44,712 nt of DNA from Escherichia phage vB_Eco_Lzu_P1 (PQ295795); one strand, 5' to 3'. Shown: positions 3,105 to 9,674, numbered from the stretch's first letter. The notes: generated by a model from the sequence alone, not told the origin. Made by a program: numbers and translations.

Positions 3105-5369
3105 TTAATCGTTCAGGTCGTCATCGGTCGCCGAAAGCGTGATGGGGATATCCGATTTGATGACTAAATTCGACGACCCATATATGGCCCCGGTGTGCGG
3201 ATCTGTATAGAAACCGATCACGCCGCGCTCAACCATATCGTCGATTGCCTTCGTCGAAGTGCCCCCCTTCGCGAGTCCTGCCTGGCGGACTATTGCCGAT
3301 TTACTGAAACCAGTATGGTCCGGGTTATCTTCCATCAGTTTTTCCAGGGCCGCGTAAAGTACCTTTTCTTTTTCGGTGCGCGGTCCGGCGGTGTTCTCAT
3401 CCTTAACTGCGGCTTTTCCTGCGGCCTTCGCCTGTTCTATAGCGAACGGTGCCAGGGCGACCGGTACGAGGTATAAAGTCTCGTCGCGCGGGGTGGACGC
3501 AATTGGTTTGACGTCCCAACCAGCAACTACGTCACCGAAGTCTGGCCCGGTGCTGGTGGACTGGTGCGACGCGAACGCTTCTGACTTGCGGAGATCTACC
3601 GCCACCTTGCACTTGAGCAGGACGAAGCCACGCGGCGCTTGCTTGATGCCGTTACGTGACTTTTCGTGATACAGGTTAAGTTGTCCCGGCTGGTTGTCGT
3701 CCGGCTGTTCCAGGAAGAAAGCTGAATCGACAGCGCCATGCAGTGCGCCGGATCCGCGTGGGGTTCTGCTGCCGTTTGCACCCTTCGCCGGGTGGTGGAT
3801 GACGCCCGCACTGCCACCTGTGTTTTCCGCAATGGCCTTCAGCGCTTTGACCACTTCACCCATATCGCTGGCGTTGTTCTCGTCAAACGGTTTAGCATCG
3901 GCGGACCGCAGCGCAACAGTCTGGTTGAGTGAGTCGAACGCCACCAGGCCAACAGGTTCGCCGTTAGCGGTGCGGTTGATAAAGCTGATAACTTCGCGCA
4001 AACCGGACTTGCTGGTGATATCCCAGCCGCGAGACTGCAGGTCGATAATGTGCAGCTTGTCCAGGTCGTGCTCGTATTTAATCTGCAATGCTTCTTTGCG
4101 CTGGTTGGAGGCTTCGCCGCCTTCCGCGTCGAAATAGAAGCAATGAGACTGGACGACCTTCGCACCGCCAAACGGGATACCCGCGGCAACCGCGCCCATT
4201 TGGCCCAGCACATAGAAAGACTTACCGATATTCGACTCACCAGCCATATACCAGGTTGATTTAAAGTTAATCAACCCCTCGATTATCGGGTCGTGCTTGC
4301 TGAACAGTGCGACCGGCTCGTTATCCAGATCCGCATCGGTGCACACGCCGTATTCTTCGCCGTCGCCAACCGCATCAACAATATGATCATATAAGGATTC
4401 TACTTCCTCGTCGTCCAGACCTGGCAGGATGGCGGCGATTTGCTTACGTGACATGTTGTGCGGCTCGACGTTCAGGTGGTCCGGTATCCCGATAAGACGT
4501 AGCGCCAGGTGCTGGTGTCTATTTAGCTCAGAGCAACACTCGTTGCCGGTGTGCATACACTTGAAACGGATCTCGCCATCCTTGACCATGATAGCCGTCG
4601 ACCCTTCGCCGCTGTGCAGATGTTCGTTCGGGCACGGCACTTCATAACCGCGACCGGAAGATAACTCCTCGAATCCTGCCTGGAAGCACCAGTCCAGAAT
4701 GCCGTCAGCCACTGCGTCGTCGCCCTGGGTAAGCTCACGGCGTACTTCCTCTTTCTCCACTCCCAGCTTGTCAGCCAGGCGAAGCAGACGACGCACACTG
4801 GCGCGCTTGCCGTAGTGACACTTAATAACAGACTGCTGGTGTGGTAGGTACATAAGACGGTTTGTGTCTTTCGTGCAGTCGTCGAAGTCCACATCAGACA
4901 GGCCCAGTTGGTCTAACAGCGCGTACTGGACGCGGCCCAGGTCTTCCGCCGGTACTGGTTTATCTGTGAGCACAAGGAAACGGGCGCAACGCGTGCCGCC
5001 TTTCAGCGGGTGGCGGTCGCCGGTGGTTGTGTGGAATACGTGCTCCAGCCCCGCGTCGATAAAAGCCTTACGGCAGCGGCGTAGGGTGCGAGTGTCGGTG
5101 CGGTCAATATCAAAGAACAGGATCGAGCGGTCCACCGCACTGGTCTTGCGGCGTAGGCCGTCACTGGTATATGCCACGATGCCATCGGCCTTACGCTTGC
5201 GGCGCGCATACTCGGCTTTATCTTCCGTCTTGTTGATATGCACCGAGGAGATTTCTTTCGCGTCATTGATAAATTCGAAAAATTCATCGGTGGTCATCTG
5301 GAAGTTTTCCGCCCTGGCTTTTTCGCCTTTTTTAGCGGGTCGTGTTACCGCGAATTTAATTAAGCTCAT
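3105..5369 (-). CDS. DNA primase-helicase (N-terminal primase-polymerase-like domain, RecA/DnaB-like ATPase with Walker A GESNIGKS)
   Basis: 754-aa ORF; Walker A GESNIGKS, cysteine/histidine cluster CPNEHLH...CMHTGNECC, acidic FFDIDRTD motif typical of primase-polymerase domains. Confidence 0.7.
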   Translation of the reverse strand: MSLIKFAVTRPAKKGEKARAENFQMTTDEFFEFINDAKEISSVHINKTEDKAEYARRKRKADGIVAYTSDGLRRKTSAVDRSILFFDIDRTDTRTLRRCRKAFIDAGLEHVFHTTTGDRHPLKGGTRCARFLVLTDKPVPAEDLGRVQYALLDQLGLSDVDFDDCTKDTNRLMYLPHQQSVIKCHYGKRASVRRLLRLADKLGVEKEEVRRELTQGDDAVADGILDWCFQAGFEELSSGRGYEVPCPNEHLHSGEGSTAIMVKDGEIRFKCMHTGNECCSELNRHQHLALRLIGIPDHLNVEPHNMSRKQIAAILPGLDDEEVESLYDHIVDAVGDGEEYGVCTDADLDNEPVALFSKHDPIIEGLINFKSTWYMAGESNIGKSFYVLGQMGAVAAGIPFGGAKVVQSHCFYFDAEGGEASNQRKEALQIKYEHDLDKLHIIDLQSRGWDITSKSGLREVISFINRTANGEPVGLVAFDSLNQTVALRSADAKPFDENNASDMGEVVKALKAIAENTGGSAGVIHHPAKGANGSRTPRGSGALHGAVDSAFFLEQPDDNQPGQLNLYHEKSRNGIKQAPRGFVLLKCKVAVDLRKSEAFASHQSTSTGPDFGDVVAGWDVKPIASTPRDETLYLVPVALAPFAIEQAKAAGKAAVKDENTAGPRTEKEKVLYAALEKLMEDNPDHTGFSKSAIVRQAGLAKGGTSTKAIDDMVERGVIGFYTDPHTGAIYGSSNLVIKSDIPITLSATDDDLND

Positions 5370-5379
5370 TGCCGTTGCC

Positions 5380-5709
5380 TTACTTCGAAGTTTTATTATT
5401 GCGTACCCAGGAGCGCACGGTGCTCTGATTAATTCCTGTCAACTCAGCGATCATTGCCCAGGATTTGCCCTCGGCGCGCAAACGGATAACCTGTTTTTTG
5501 TATTCTTCCATTTCGTCATTGTGCTTTTGCAGCTTGCTTGCTGCCGTGCCGTTGAGTAATTCCAGCTTCGCGGTAAGCTCCTTCTCAGCACGCGATAATC
5601 TGGACACTTCAAATAACAGAGTATCCACCGCATTTGTGTAATACCAGGATTTACCCGCTTCGCCGCGGATTGCATTAGATAACACTTCAATTGCTTCTTT
5701 GATATTCAT
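5380..5709 (-). CDS. Helix-turn-helix DNA-binding protein (putative transcription regulator)
   Basis: C-terminal GKSWAMIAELTGINQSTVRSWVRN is a classic HTH; first gene of the minus-strand block next to the divergent promoter region. Confidence 0.55.
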   Translation of the reverse strand: MNIKEAIEVLSNAIRGEAGKSWYYTNAVDTLLFEVSRLSRAEKELTAKLELLNGTAASKLQKHNDEMEEYKKQVIRLRAEGKSWAMIAELTGINQSTVRSWVRNNKTSK

Positions 5710-5740
5710 AATTCAGTCTCCTGTTGGCTAATGACCAACG

Positions 5741-5769
5741 AAACTACACCCAAAACTGCACGGTGTCAA
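5741..5769 (-). promoter_or_regulatory. Sigma70-like promoter for the minus-strand block
   Basis: Minus strand: TTGACA - 17 nt - TAGTTT, about 30 nt upstream of the RBS of the 5709 gene. Confidence 0.45.
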
Positions 5770-5839
5770 ATCCTTTGGATATTGAAACGGGCGCGCACGC
5801 GTGTAATAATAATTCCCGTCTCATTGTCTCTTATTGGTT

Positions 5840-5875
5840 AGCGCCGTCGCATTTTGCTTCGGCGCTTTTTTTTTT
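5840..5875 (+). terminator. Intrinsic terminator (plus strand) with T10 tract
   Basis: AGCGCCG-13 nt loop-CGGCGCT followed by TTTTTTTTTT; no plus-strand CDS upstream. Confidence 0.6.
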
Positions 5876-5885
5876 AAATTAGTTG

Positions 5886-5914
5886 TTGACTCCCTTCTGC
5901 AACCAATCTAATAT
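5886..5914 (+). promoter_or_regulatory. Early promoter (sigma70-like) for the plus-strand replication block
   Basis: TTGACT - 17 nt - TAATAT; spacer contains TGCAACCAAT motif. Confidence 0.55.
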
Positions 5915-6110
5915 TCACCTCGTCGACAGGATGCAGGAAGCAAACTGGAGAGGGGCAACGCAGGGGCCGGATCGAAGTGTCAGGATTCCCAACCGTGATT
6001 ATATAACCCGGTCCACTACCCGAAAGGGAGAACGCGCAACCGGGCGCTATGTTAAGGCCACCGACGAAGTTAATGGTCGACACCTAAACTTAACCAATCG
6101 GAGATATACC

Positions 6111-6650
6111 ATGTTTGAGCAAATCGTAAACCTGATCACTCGCGGCGTAGTAGCCCTGGAAATCATCGCTAAGCATTATGAAACCGTTGGCGCTGCCGTA
6201 GACCCAAAAGCAAACGGCACCGCTAAGAAAGGCAAGGCCAAGCCGGAGAACGAAGTCGAAGACGACGATCAGGACGAAGTCGAAGATACGCCCAAAGCGA
6301 AAAAAGGCGCGGCAAAAGAAACCAAGTCTAAAGGTAAGGCCAAAAAAGAAGTCGTAGAGGATGACGACGAGGATGAAGCCGAAGACGAAAAACCGGCTAA
6401 AACCAAAAAAGCACCAGCGAAAGGCAAAGGTAAGAAAGATGCCGATCCGCTGGCAGAGATGCGCGACGAAATCAAACAGTATGCCGCGATTATCGCAGGC
6501 GGTGATGACGACGATGCGAACGACGAATTCGACGACCTGCTGGAATCGTTCGAGATCAAATCAATCGCTAAACTGGAAGACGACGACGTGGAAGACTTCC
6601 ACAAAGACCTGAAAGAAATCGTCGAAACTTATTTCGAACTGGAAGATTAA
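6111..6650 (+). CDS. Highly charged low-complexity protein (alternating acidic and lysine-rich blocks), first early gene
   Basis: ATG at 6111 with GGAGAT RBS; 179 aa with runs such as EDDDQDEVED, KAKKGAAKETKSKGKAKK, GGDDDDANDEFDD; ORF track 5883..6650 includes an upstream extension without RBS. Confidence 0.6.
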   Translation: MFEQIVNLITRGVVALEIIAKHYETVGAAVDPKANGTAKKGKAKPENEVEDDDQDEVEDTPKAKKGAAKETKSKGKAKKEVVEDDDEDEAEDEKPAKTKKAPAKGKGKKDADPLAEMRDEIKQYAAIIAGGDDDDANDEFDDLLESFEIKSIAKLEDDDVEDFHKDLKEIVETYFELED

Positions 6651-6656
6651 TATTAT

Positions 6657-6686
6657 CCGGCCCGCAGATTAGCGGGCCTCTTTTTA
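6657..6686 (+). terminator. Intrinsic terminator
   Basis: GGCCCGC-agatta-GCGGGCC followed by TCTTTTT. Confidence 0.6.
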
Positions 6687-6698
6687 GAGGACGAGACA

Positions 6699-6950
6699 AT
6701 GGCACGCTTCACGCTAATAGAGGCGGTGGATTCCCGCGACCAGCGCCCATATTATTGGCTATTCGAACGCATCGGCAGCTTTCAATCACGCGTTGCCGTA
6801 ATTGATAAACGCCGCACTACACCCGCGCAAATTAAGCGCACCACCTTTACCAATCCAGACTTTTATATTTGGGCTGACTCCAATCTGGAATATGTTCGCT
6901 TCGCCGTTGCATCCGAAGCAAAAACAATTGACCGCTGGGAGACAAAATAA
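6699..6950 (+). CDS. Hypothetical protein (83 aa)
   Basis: ORF track; GAGGA RBS. Confidence 0.5.
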   Translation: MARFTLIEAVDSRDQRPYYWLFERIGSFQSRVAVIDKRRTTPAQIKRTTFTNPDFYIWADSNLEYVRFAVASEAKTIDRWETK

Positions 6951-7139
6951 ATGGCTATATTTTTCGTTTTATTTCGCTGCCGTATCACTGGCGACGAGAT
7001 ACCAGAAATAATCAGGCATGAGAACTGGCTTTGCTGTTGGGGGAAAGCCTGCGACCTGGCTTTGACAATGAACGAAGACGCGAAGCGGGACAATGTTGAA
7101 CACGATTATTACATTGCTCAATTTTCAAGGGTGGAATAA
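6951..7139 (+). CDS. Hypothetical protein (62 aa)
   Basis: ORF track; start abuts previous stop, stop overlaps next start (TAATG). Confidence 0.4.
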   Translation: MAIFFVLFRCRITGDEIPEIIRHENWLCCWGKACDLALTMNEDAKRDNVEHDYYIAQFSRVE

Positions 7140-8569
7140 TGGCGATTAAACCAAAACGTAAAACGCAATCCGGTAGCAATACGGAACACTCATTACTCGG
7201 GCCATCCGGTGCTAAAAAATGGATGGGTTGCCCTGCCGCCCTGGTGGTGGAAAAAGATATCCCGAACGAATCCGGGCAGGCGGCGATTAACGGTACGAGT
7301 ATGCACACCGTATCTGAAGTTGTGCTAAACCGCATTATCGCCGGTGAAAAGCTGATAACCGCAAAGACGTATAAAGGATGCTACGTCGAGAACGAAGGCA
7401 AGGGACCAGTAAAGGCCCACCCGAAAGCACCGAAAGGCGGCGTACTGGTCAACGACGATATGGTGAAACAGTGCGACGCGTACATCGACCACTGGCGACC
7501 GCTCCTCGAAGTGGCGGAGTTTGTCCAGCTTGAGATGCGCGCCGATCTCACCCGCGTCCTCCACCATGGCGTCGAGATCGACGGTAACAGGGTTAAGACG
7601 TTCGGCACTGCCGATATGGTCATGATCATGAAGAAGACCGATGGCACGTACATGCTGATTGTTGGCGACCTGAAGACCGGGCGACATAAGGTCGAGGCGA
7701 AAGAAAACAAACAGCTTATGTTGTACGCGCTCGGCCTGCTGCGCAAGCTGCAAACCATGTACGACATTACGACCGTGCGCCTGGTCATCTTCCAGCCGTA
7801 TTGCGGCGGGGCGTCAGAGTGGGATATCTCAGTGGAAGCGCTGGAGATATTCGCGAAGTTTGCGTCCAAGCGTGCTATCGCCGCGCTCGATGCATACGCC
7901 CGTGGCAAGAAGGGACTGACCCGCGCCGACTTCCGACCGAGCGTTGATGCGTGCCAGTGGTGCAGATTTGCGGACCAGTGCAGCGTCCGGGCGAAGGCCG
8001 CAATCGACACGATGACGCCACCAACGGCAACCGACGAAGACCTTGGCGACGACGTGAGCGTGGCAACCGAGGAAGAGTGCGCCAACCAAGACCGCAATAT
8101 GACCCGCGAAGCCCGGAAGGCTGCCCGACGTGCTAAACGGGGCAAGAAGGAATCCACCCCAGGCGCTATGAGCGCGGCGGAACTGCGCAAGGCTTATGAA
8201 GGACTTGACGCAATGCGCCAGCACATCAAAGCTATCGAGTACGCGGTATTCAAGGCGGTCATGGCGGGCGATGGCGAATCGTTGGGCCTTAAGATGGTTG
8301 CCGGTAAGGAAGGGATCCGTAAGTGGGCAGACGAGAGCGAAGTGATTGAAATCTTCACGAAGGCCCGGATCAAGCGCGATGTGATGTACAAAGAAACATT
8401 GCTCAGCCCGACCGATGCCGAGAAGGTACTGAAGGACGAGAAGCCGAAAGTGTGGGCGAAGCTGTGTGCTAAAATCACACGCGCACCTGCAAAACCGGTG
8501 TTAGCACCAATCGACGACCCGCGCCCCGCGTGGTCTGAAGCTACTGACGAGGACTTAAGCAATGAATAA
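7139..8569 (+). CDS. PD-(D/E)xK-family nuclease with C-terminal cysteine cluster (Cas4/RecB-like phage exonuclease)
   Basis: Motifs GTADMV ... IVGDLKTG (D...D-x-K) and C-terminal CQWCRFADQC; paired with the downstream SSB-like gene. Confidence 0.55.
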   Translation: MAIKPKRKTQSGSNTEHSLLGPSGAKKWMGCPAALVVEKDIPNESGQAAINGTSMHTVSEVVLNRIIAGEKLITAKTYKGCYVENEGKGPVKAHPKAPKGGVLVNDDMVKQCDAYIDHWRPLLEVAEFVQLEMRADLTRVLHHGVEIDGNRVKTFGTADMVMIMKKTDGTYMLIVGDLKTGRHKVEAKENKQLMLYALGLLRKLQTMYDITTVRLVIFQPYCGGASEWDISVEALEIFAKFASKRAIAALDAYARGKKGLTRADFRPSVDACQWCRFADQCSVRAKAAIDTMTPPTATDEDLGDDVSVATEEECANQDRNMTREARKAARRAKRGKKESTPGAMSAAELRKAYEGLDAMRQHIKAIEYAVFKAVMAGDGESLGLKMVAGKEGIRKWADESEVIEIFTKARIKRDVMYKETLLSPTDAEKVLKDEKPKVWAKLCAKITRAPAKPVLAPIDDPRPAWSEATDEDLSNE

Positions 8570-8829: not shown

Positions 8830-8894
8830 GGCAACCAAGCCGAACGGGGTGGCTCACAATAACCCCGATACATGTGAAAATGAGGAATTGGAAA

Positions 8895-9674
8895 ATGGCT
8901 AAAGTCAACCTGAAAAATGTGCGCGTATGTTTCCTGAATATTTGGGAACGTGATACCCCTAAACAGGCTGGGCAAAAACCGGCATACCGCGCCGTGATTC
9001 TTCTGGATAAAGAAGATCCGCAGGTGGACAAAGTGGAAGCGGCAGCGCGCGCAGCGCTCACCGTCAAGCTGAAATCCGAGAAGAATGCCGATAAGTGGAT
9101 GGACCGCCACTACGCCCAGGATTCTAAGGAATGCGCAGTCCGCGACGGTGACGAGCGCGACGAAGTAACCGAAGAATTCGAAGGCATGTTGTACATCAAC
9201 GCCAAATCGTTCAAGCAGCCAAACATTCAAACGTCACTCGGCGAGAAGCAGACTGAACAAGGTCTGACCGTAGAAGGCGACGAGATCGAAGGCCAGGAGA
9301 TCTACTCCGGTTGTTATTGCAACGTGTCACTGGATATTTGGGCGTGGAACAATACCAACGGCAAGGGACTCGGTGCTGGGCTTTTAGGTCTGCGCTTCCG
9401 TGATGACGGCGAAGCCTTCGGCGGTGGCGGATCTTCTTGCTCCGACGAAGACCTGGGCGACGATGACGAAAGCCCGCGCAAGTCCAAAAAGTCAAAACGT
9501 CGTGATGACGATGACGAAGATGACAAGCCGCGCAAGTCCAAAAAGTCCAAGCGCCGCGATGACGATGACGACGACGAAGATGAAAAACCTCGTAAACGTC
9601 GTAAGCCACGCGACGATGAAGATGAGGACGAAGACGACGAAGACGAAGCACCACGTAAACGTCGCCGTCGTTAA
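8895..9674 (+). CDS. Putative single-stranded DNA-binding protein with repetitive acidic/basic C-terminal tail
   Basis: ATG at 8895 with GAGGA RBS; N-terminal MAKVNLKNVRVCFLNIWE pattern and acidic tail resemble phage gp2.5-type SSBs; location next to exonuclease and polymerase. Confidence 0.4.
   Translation: MAKVNLKNVRVCFLNIWERDTPKQAGQKPAYRAVILLDKEDPQVDKVEAAARAALTVKLKSEKNADKWMDRHYAQDSKECAVRDGDERDEVTEEFEGMLYINAKSFKQPNIQTSLGEKQTEQGLTVEGDEIEGQEIYSGCYCNVSLDIWAWNNTNGKGLGAGLLGLRFRDDGEAFGGGGSSCSDEDLGDDDESPRKSKKSKRRDDDDEDDKPRKSKKSKRRDDDDDDEDEKPRKRRKPRDDEDEDEDDEDEAPRKRRRR
9474..9660 (+). repeat. Imperfect tandem repeat (about 57-bp unit, 2-3 copies) inside the SSB-like CDS
   Basis: ccgcgcaagtccaaaaagtc...gatgacgatgac repeated, encoding PRKSKKSKRRDDDDEDDK twice, then a degenerate third copy. 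Confidence 0.75.

Follow-up and report, generated by a model that had tools for sequence, protein, structure and literature searches.

A conserved acidic protein heading the replication and recombination genes of Dhillonvirus and related phages, and a candidate regulatory RNA in its leader

What is the role of a small, highly charged protein encoded at the head of a phage's replication genes? We addressed this question in Escherichia phage vB_Eco_Lzu_P1 (PQ295795), using a window of 44,712 nucleotides, that is, the whole stretch of DNA analyzed. An open reading frame (ORF) on the + strand, 6111-6650, opens with ATG at 6111, closes with TAA at 6648-6650, and encodes a product of 179 amino acids. 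The source of the window is a Dhillonvirus, and the region 5700-7200 shares 90-95% identity with many Dhillonvirus Escherichia phages (SSL-2009a, JL1, Oekolampad, SECphi4, and EP23). The original prediction described the product as a low-complexity, largely disordered protein that might mimic DNA, bind the nucleoid, or counter restriction. We find that it is best seen as a conserved, abundant, non-virion accessory protein of a T7-like module that comprises a helicase-primase, a DUF2800 exonuclease, a Gp2.5-like SSB (a protein that binds single-stranded DNA), and Pol A.

Comparison with relatives places the true start of the protein at ATG 6111, served by the GGAG at 6100-6103. A longer ORF from 5883, which yields GenBank products of 207-239 amino acids, was considered and rejected. 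Relatives either carry 1- or 2-nt indels before the ATG, which break the frame, or do not have the stretch at all. The upstream extension (5883-6110) is therefore non-coding. Records in which a false extension of ~60 codons runs through the leader RNA include SD276, Oekolampad, EE09 CDS56, Opt212, and Teewinot. In practical terms, the additional 60 N-terminal residues in many GenBank records are in reality a structured RNA leader. From ATG 6111 onward, the reading frame behaves as a gene. In comparisons among Dhillonviruses, the codons of both end modules differ far more often synonymously than non-synonymously (16:2, 11:1, and 20:7 in the C-terminal domain). This is therefore a real gene under purifying selection. 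The coordinates of the gene, its modules, and its surroundings are collected in Table 1.

Table 1. Positions of the features discussed in the text, counted from the first nucleotide of the window.
Feature	Position	Strand	Evidence or remarks
Sigma70-type promoter, TTGACT-17 nt-TAATAT	5886..5914	+	Consensus scan; position and sequence kept in all relatives examined
Structured 5' leader RNA, ~165 nt	5919..6084	+	190.5 bits against covariance model R1; between promoter and ribosome-binding site
Ribosome-binding site, GGAG	6100..6103	+	7 nt before ATG; kept in relatives while upstream sequence varies or is missing
Coding sequence, 179-aa protein, PHROG 3127	6111..6650, including stop	+	Codon statistics; ortholog EE09 CDS56 detected by MS
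N-terminal amphipathic helix, aa 1-30	6111..6200	+	Conserved in alignments; heptad-like hydrophobic spacing; invariant R11 and E17
Disordered block-polyampholyte spacer, aa 31-112	6201..6446	+	Lys-rich and Asp/Glu blocks alternate; length variable
Acidic three-helix C-terminal domain, aa 113-179	6447..6647	+	6 basic and 25 acidic residues; AF2 pLDDT ~90
Terminator-like hairpin, GGCCCGC/GCGGGCC	6659..6685	+	7-bp all-GC stem at 6659-6678, then TCTTTTT U-run
83-aa protein, PHROG 4965	6699..6950	+	Usually between the 179-aa gene and the exonuclease
DUF2800 / PD-(D/E)XK exonuclease	7139..8569	+	Invariable downstream neighbor
Gp2.5-like (Enc34-type) ssDNA-binding/annealing protein (SSB), PF10991, PHROG 112	8874..9674	+	Pfam, PHROGs
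SSB tail, aa ~196-266	~9459..9671		Acidic and Arg/Lys blocks alternate; ends in PRKRRRR

The protein is built from three modules, of which only one accounts for its acidity. Homologs for alignment were gathered by a word-indexed search, which returned 106 proteins, and by an exhaustive HMMER profile search, which returned 49 cluster representatives. The alignments resolve an N-terminal helix (residues 1-30), a charged spacer (31-112), and a C-terminal domain (113-179). With 28 Lys, 27 Asp, 26 Glu, and 22 Ala, the protein has 53 acidic vs. 30 basic residues and a pI of 4.46, in agreement with the high charge noted at the outset. By module, however, the helix carries a net charge of -1, the spacer one of -3, and the C-terminal domain one of -19. 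The spacer, holding 22 basic vs. 25 acidic residues, is nearly neutral. Almost all of the net acidity lies in the C-terminal domain and is therefore a property of a folded domain, not of the low-complexity part of the protein.

The C-terminal domain is conserved in all family members, with a net charge that ranges from -8 to -21 and is always acidic. In the AlphaFold2 (AF2) model, pLDDT is ~90 for residues 111-178, ~60-67 for the helix at 2-26, and <50 for residues 22-108. The original prediction of a largely disordered product was thus about half right. Likewise, "low-complexity" describes the spacer but not the conserved N-terminal helix or the folded domain. The predicted helices of the C-terminal domain, a small and rigid bundle, span residues 113-130, 134-146, and 157-175; as modeled, this three-helix fold is generic and uninformative on function.

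The spacer alternates between Lys-rich and poly-Asp/Glu blocks, as had been proposed. Charge segregation in residues 31-112 is 6.3 standard deviations above 5000 shuffles, none of which reaches the observed value. Across 100 close homologs the spacer varies from 19 to 83 residues, and its length changes by whole Lys-block and acid-block units. We found imperfect direct repeats in the spacer DNA; Tandem Repeats Finder reported no clean DNA repeat there.

Two other readings of these modules were discarded. The highest-scoring 19-residue hydropathy window reaches 1.32 and includes E3, R11, and E17; because of these internal charged residues, the N-terminal helix is not a membrane span, and a membrane anchor was ruled out. 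Inspection of the DDDD stretches by eye for EF-hand-like calcium loops showed a spacing that does not fit.

The 179-aa protein belongs to a widespread phage family. It matches the PHROG 3127 HMM over its full length (E = 1.7e-50; residues 1-179 aligned with positions 1-178 of the 178-position profile), and 34 of the 34 divergent relatives tested match this HMM too. PHROGs gives phrog_3127 no function label, and membership names the protein without explaining it. In Pfam nothing exceeded threshold, the sub-threshold matches being to low-complexity families (BUD22 and DUF6669). A profile search of PDB sequences gave nothing meaningful, and a BFVD search recovered the protein's own family and nothing else. 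Homology to a characterized family, which the original prediction had set against its own proposal, did not emerge from Pfam, PHROGs, PDB, or BFVD. Some members are labeled "13.88 kDa late protein", a name that derives from the entry of Salmonella phage MB78, a family member in BFVD; a search of the literature on the MB78 protein returned nothing informative.

A tblastn search with a divergent member added 487 phage records outside Dhillonvirus. Annotated examples occur in Jerseyvirus, Cornellvirus, and a Kagunavirus-like BASEL phage.

Across these genera, the gene occupies a fixed place. The order helicase-primase, 179-aa gene, (83-aa ORF), exonuclease, SSB recurs in ~90 loci from Dhillonvirus, Jerseyvirus, Kagunavirus-like phages, and Cornellvirus. 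It persists despite protein identity down to ~30% and despite an inversion of the helicase-primase gene in some lineages. When loci were anchored on the exonuclease, the gene was present in 76 of the 76 with enough upstream DNA. This universal presence and the synteny across ~90 loci therefore identify a core gene of the module, not a patchy anti-defense gene. Such strict core-gene synteny across genera is atypical for anti-defense genes. The conserved position at the head of the replication and recombination genes points to a putative replication helper rather than an anti-restriction factor.

In the window, the gene is preceded by the helicase-primase gene (3105-5369) and by a gene for a small helix-turn-helix (HTH) protein (5380-5709). 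To its right lie two small ORFs, the DUF2800 exonuclease gene, another small ORF, and the SSB gene, joined in relatives by DNA polymerase A. The 83-aa ORF of PHROG 4965 is kept in most of the ~90 related loci and is a second near-core gene of the module. In relatives, mobile elements have also invaded the module. In Salmonella phage vB_SenS-Ent2, an intein interrupts the DNA polymerase gene (L091, 8937-12035), and in phage Shemara (L093) HNH endonuclease genes flank the exonuclease gene at 7199-7705 and 8951-9478.

Several named phage proteins were compared with the 179-aa protein and found to be different. Ksap1, the KpAvs2 trigger of Dhillonvirus, has 74 amino acids and is encoded between methyltransferase and phosphatase genes. 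The Dhillonvirus inhibitor of Tmn, anti-Tmn, is ORF35, has a beta-sheet, and shows a patchy distribution. Work on RAZR and Retron-Eco8/Borvo with SECphi18 and SECphi4 implicates the portal protein, SSB, and polymerase, and not the 179-aa gene.

The 179-aa protein is abundant in infected cells. In published proteomics of E. coli, taken 25 min after infection with Dhillonvirus EE09 at MOI 5, only four phage proteins were detected, among them CDS56 and CDS61 (PMC10673088). According to the EE09 genome record, CDS61 is the Gp2.5-like SSB, and CDS56, whose annotation includes the false extension, is the ortholog of the 179-aa gene. The proteins listed for cell-free lysates do not include CDS56 (PMC10673088), which is therefore not a virion component. 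A structural or scaffolding role in the virion was rejected on the same two observations. We infer the "early" timing of the gene from its position; the "late protein" label in MB78 hints at late expression in one relative.

The signals around the gene are conserved in position. The consensus promoter scan gave an overall count no better than chance, while the promoter at 5886-5914 keeps its position in all of the relatives examined, including ones whose proteins are ~40% identical. This predicted promoter drives the rightward replication/recombination operon. The 179-aa gene is indeed the first cistron behind it, as originally predicted; the arrangement is nevertheless not an immediate one, because a 166-nt structured leader separates promoter and gene. 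The prediction that the gene is followed by its own terminator also found support, in a terminator-like GC hairpin at 6659-6678 and a U-run. A GC-rich hairpin lies at the same position 3' of the stop codon in 17 of 20 loci, including Dhillonvirus, Jerseyvirus, Kagunavirus-like, and other phages, and its stem sequences differ. Conserved in position and not in sequence, this putative terminator fits higher expression of the 179-aa cistron.

The DNA just upstream of the main promoter has features of its own. A promoter-like TTGAAA-17-AATAAT with TG lies at 5782-5810 (+). After another ~30 nt come a hairpin (AGCGCCG...CGGCGCT) and T10, at ~5842-5876. The sequence of this segment (5782-5876) suggests either a transcription unit of ~60 nt or a terminator with an insulating role. 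Divergent relatives, too, retain the motif CTCATTGTCT within it. A 36-aa ORF is annotated at 5731-5841 in some records. The 109-aa HTH protein at 5380-5709 (-) matches Pfam HTH_23 and Sigma70_r4_2 and probably regulates transcription in the divergent promoter region. The labels "transposase", "resolvase", and "DNA recombination nuclease inhibitor gamma" that have been attached to it are not backed by domain matches.

The leader is a well-supported candidate for a new class of regulatory RNA in phage early transcription units, as judged from comparative sequence analysis. It is an optional insert, present in most Dhillonviruses and absent from some. Further copies were detected by blastn in Drexlerviridae (Tempevirinae; tunus, PHB17, and others), in Jilinvirus (PT1 and Arya), and in Klebsiella phages. 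Scanning viral, genome, and metagenome collections for sequence patterns added few more, mostly on contigs of ~39-52 kb, the size of a phage genome. A covariance model scores 22 copies at 152-190 bits, including L174:1475-1636, L175:1475-1638, L176:1487-1650, and L177:1487-1651. Copies are always intergenic and lie on the strand of the flanking genes. Of 15 copies examined, nearly all begin a few nucleotides downstream of a -10-like hexamer, and for most of them a -35 is recognizable as well; each ends 10-45 nt before a different, unrelated ORF.

Covariation among 24 unique leader copies supports helices P1, P4, and P5 as well as two single pairs. The core hardly varies (GGAGAGGRGYAACGC...GUGUCAGGAUUCCYAACCGUGA...CACU...GAACGC...AGGCYACCGACGAAG). 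P1 occurs in six versions among the 24 unique sequences with complementarity kept, and P4 in approximately nine, one of which has a G·U pair, which fits an RNA of the + strand. Four versions of the P5 stem occur, usually capped by a GNRA loop. The two isolated pairs switch from G-C to A-U, or from C-G to A-U, in step in 24 of 24 sequences. RNAalifold on MAFFT and covariance-model alignments mis-registered P4 in two lineages, and the helices were therefore counted by anchor-based extraction. The structure is evident from comparison only, since the fold of the single leader sequence is no better than that of shuffles (z = -0.55). Rfam 15 gave no match at E <= 1 for seven leader copies (the window and six further loci).

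In position, the leader resembles the put RNA of phage HK022 more than a metabolite riboswitch. The put RNA is ~70 nt long with two stem-loops. Structured and transcribed directly after early promoters (PMC9378689), put shares with the leader a promoter-proximal location and an indifference to the gene downstream. The leader differs in its length of ~165 nt and its five or more helices, and there is no recognizable sequence similarity between the two. Relatives without the leader retain the same downstream terminator; the leader is therefore not obligatory.

What, then, might the protein contribute to the module? In T7 gp2.5, an acidic C-terminal tail is part of the SSB itself, and E. coli SSB has a disordered linker and an acidic tip. 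The 179-aa protein resembles this system in placing an acidic module on a flexible tether, within a T7-like replication module that also encodes a Gp2.5-like SSB, and both are abundant early proteins. Here, however, the acidic module belongs to a separate polypeptide, in which it folds as a three-helix domain, and sequence similarity is lacking. The polarity is inverted as well, because the SSB tail ends in Arg/Lys. In the window, acidic and Arg/Lys blocks alternate along this tail, which ends in PRKRRRR. SSB tips are mostly basic across the clade (PRRERRRR, APRKRRRR, and RPRRRSR); some SSBs end acidic after a basic patch (RNYEDDEE and RRRNRDED).

We tentatively favor the view that the 179-aa protein is an acidic docking module, flexibly tethered, that serves the replication/recombination machinery, and we consider this possible without calling it probable. 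The acidic C-terminal domain would dock on a basic surface of the module's proteins, with the Arg-rich SSB tail as the likeliest partner. The T7 arrangement would thus be inverted, the acidic module acting in trans and the basic tip residing on the SSB. The N-terminal helix, with its coiled-coil-type spacing, may oligomerize the protein or anchor it to a partner as a second contact, and the spacer would be a flexible tether that tolerates length change and is free to expand or contract in evolution. So built, the protein could tether or organize SSB-coated DNA and its enzymes. Promoter, own ribosome-binding site, and 3' hairpin would together raise its expression above that of the downstream enzymes, to stoichiometric rather than catalytic amounts.

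The SSB is most plausibly the partner, judging from co-occurrence, complementary charge, and a correlation over ~4-6 effectively independent clades. Over 80 distinct pairs, spacer charge-blockiness correlates with SSB tail length (Spearman rho 0.81) and with tail blockiness (rho 0.84); these pairs come from that small number of clades, and the p-values therefore overstate the evidence. Dhillonviruses combine long, blocky SSB tails with blocky spacers. Jerseyvirus and Kagunavirus have short tails and a spacer with one acid-base-acid element, and other groups are intermediate. A lineage-wide drift to charged repeats could yield the same correlation without interaction.

Other readings of the same features have to be weighed against docking. 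Lambda Gam and T7 gp5.9 are RecBCD-inhibiting DNA mimics, encoded in the orders gam-bet-exo in lambda and 5.9-6 in T7. The 179-aa protein, small, helical, and acidic like them, might similarly inhibit a host nuclease: the acidic domain, dimeric via the N-terminal helix, would mimic DNA and block RecBCD, thereby protecting linear replication/recombination intermediates. The gene lies directly upstream of exonuclease and annealase genes, as the inhibitor genes do, and in all loci it adjoins a recombination exonuclease and annealase. Extreme negative charge on a small domain and abundance in infected cells are also in keeping with inhibition, and presence throughout the clade suits a need common to all these phages. 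Yet searches of Pfam, PDB sequences, BFVD, and folds detected no similarity in sequence or fold to Gam, gp5.9, Abc2, Ocr, ArdA, other solved DNA mimics, or any characterized family, and the long, neutral polyampholyte spacer has no match in those inhibitors. The family also diverges as fast as the phage replication proteins while the RecBCD enzymes of the hosts are closely related, a point that is only suggestive. We regard a DNA-mimic role for the C-terminal domain, for example against RecBCD, as unlikely. T7 Ocr (gp0.3), the product of the first early gene, is an anti-restriction DNA mimic, and an anti-restriction or anti-defense mimic made first after infection was what the original prediction had in mind. 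The 179-aa protein is acidic and, like Ocr, comes from the first cistron after a promoter of host type, here a conserved one. This proposal fared poorly. The similarity searches just described found no relationship to Ocr or ArdA, and strong acidity is confined to the 67-aa domain. The gene is core rather than a patchy accessory, in strict synteny with replication genes across genera, and its product is distinct from both Ksap1 and anti-Tmn, two Dhillonvirus proteins tied to defense systems. Moreover, the gene is present in all BASEL Dhillonviruses among the search matches, and Dhillonviruses are reported to be relatively sensitive to restriction-modification of types I and II (PMC8594841); by this indirect evidence from the literature, its carriers do not appear to be protected from type I restriction. 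An Ocr-like role is thus very improbable.

The remaining alternatives turn on the spacer. Its Lys blocks (KKGKAKP, KSKGKAKK, and KPAKTKKAPAKGKGKK) could bind DNA or the nucleoid in the manner of histone H1-like tails, with the acidic blocks and the C-terminal domain tuning or auto-inhibiting this activity. The 28 lysines fall in AK/PK-rich blocks, and the protein is abundant in infected cells and encoded inside a DNA-metabolism module, all of which would suit a DNA binder. But the spacer is the least conserved part of the protein, is down to 19 residues in natural variants, and has no appreciable net charge; in other genera, it holds only one short basic patch. What is conserved is the helix and the acidic domain, neither of which has the appearance of a DNA-binding element. 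DNA binding would thus fall to the part of the protein that is dispensable, which weakens this reading, and we think it improbable. Alternatively, the block-charged spacer might act as a scaffold that co-condenses with the block-charged SSB tail into a replication compartment. The strong charge segregation of the spacer (z = 6.3), the same block pattern in the SSB tail, the co-variation of the two across lineages, and the detection of both proteins among the few phage proteins in infected cells are consistent with this. Its sole basis, however, is physical reasoning derived from sequence. Outside Dhillonvirus, most family members have weakly blocky spacers and short SSB tails, and condensation therefore cannot be the conserved core function. 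We give this scaffold little credence.

The docking proposal can also be extended into a composite. Across the clade, the SSB acidic-tail system would be split and inverted; in Dhillonvirus, the spacer would have co-expanded with the SSB tail, leading to co-assembly, possibly as an electrostatic condensate, in a replication/recombination center; and the ~165-nt leader would be a new promoter-proximal regulatory RNA class in three phage lineages. Taken as a whole, we judge this combination rather unlikely.

Members of the family are encoded by at least 640 phages with sequenced genomes (154 Dhillonvirus-type and 487 Guernseyvirinae-type records). These phages infect E. coli and Salmonella and include widely used model collections (BASEL and SECphi) and phage-therapy candidates; in them, the protein is a fixed part of the replication/recombination module. 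The leader stands behind early promoters in three phage lineages: Dhillonvirus, Drexlerviridae, and Jilinvirus. If the acidic domain does mimic DNA against RecBCD, it would represent a new fold for RecBCD inhibition. If instead its partner is the SSB tail, the docking module would represent a new wiring of the T7-like replisome, with relevance to defense systems that sense SSB, such as Retron-Eco8.
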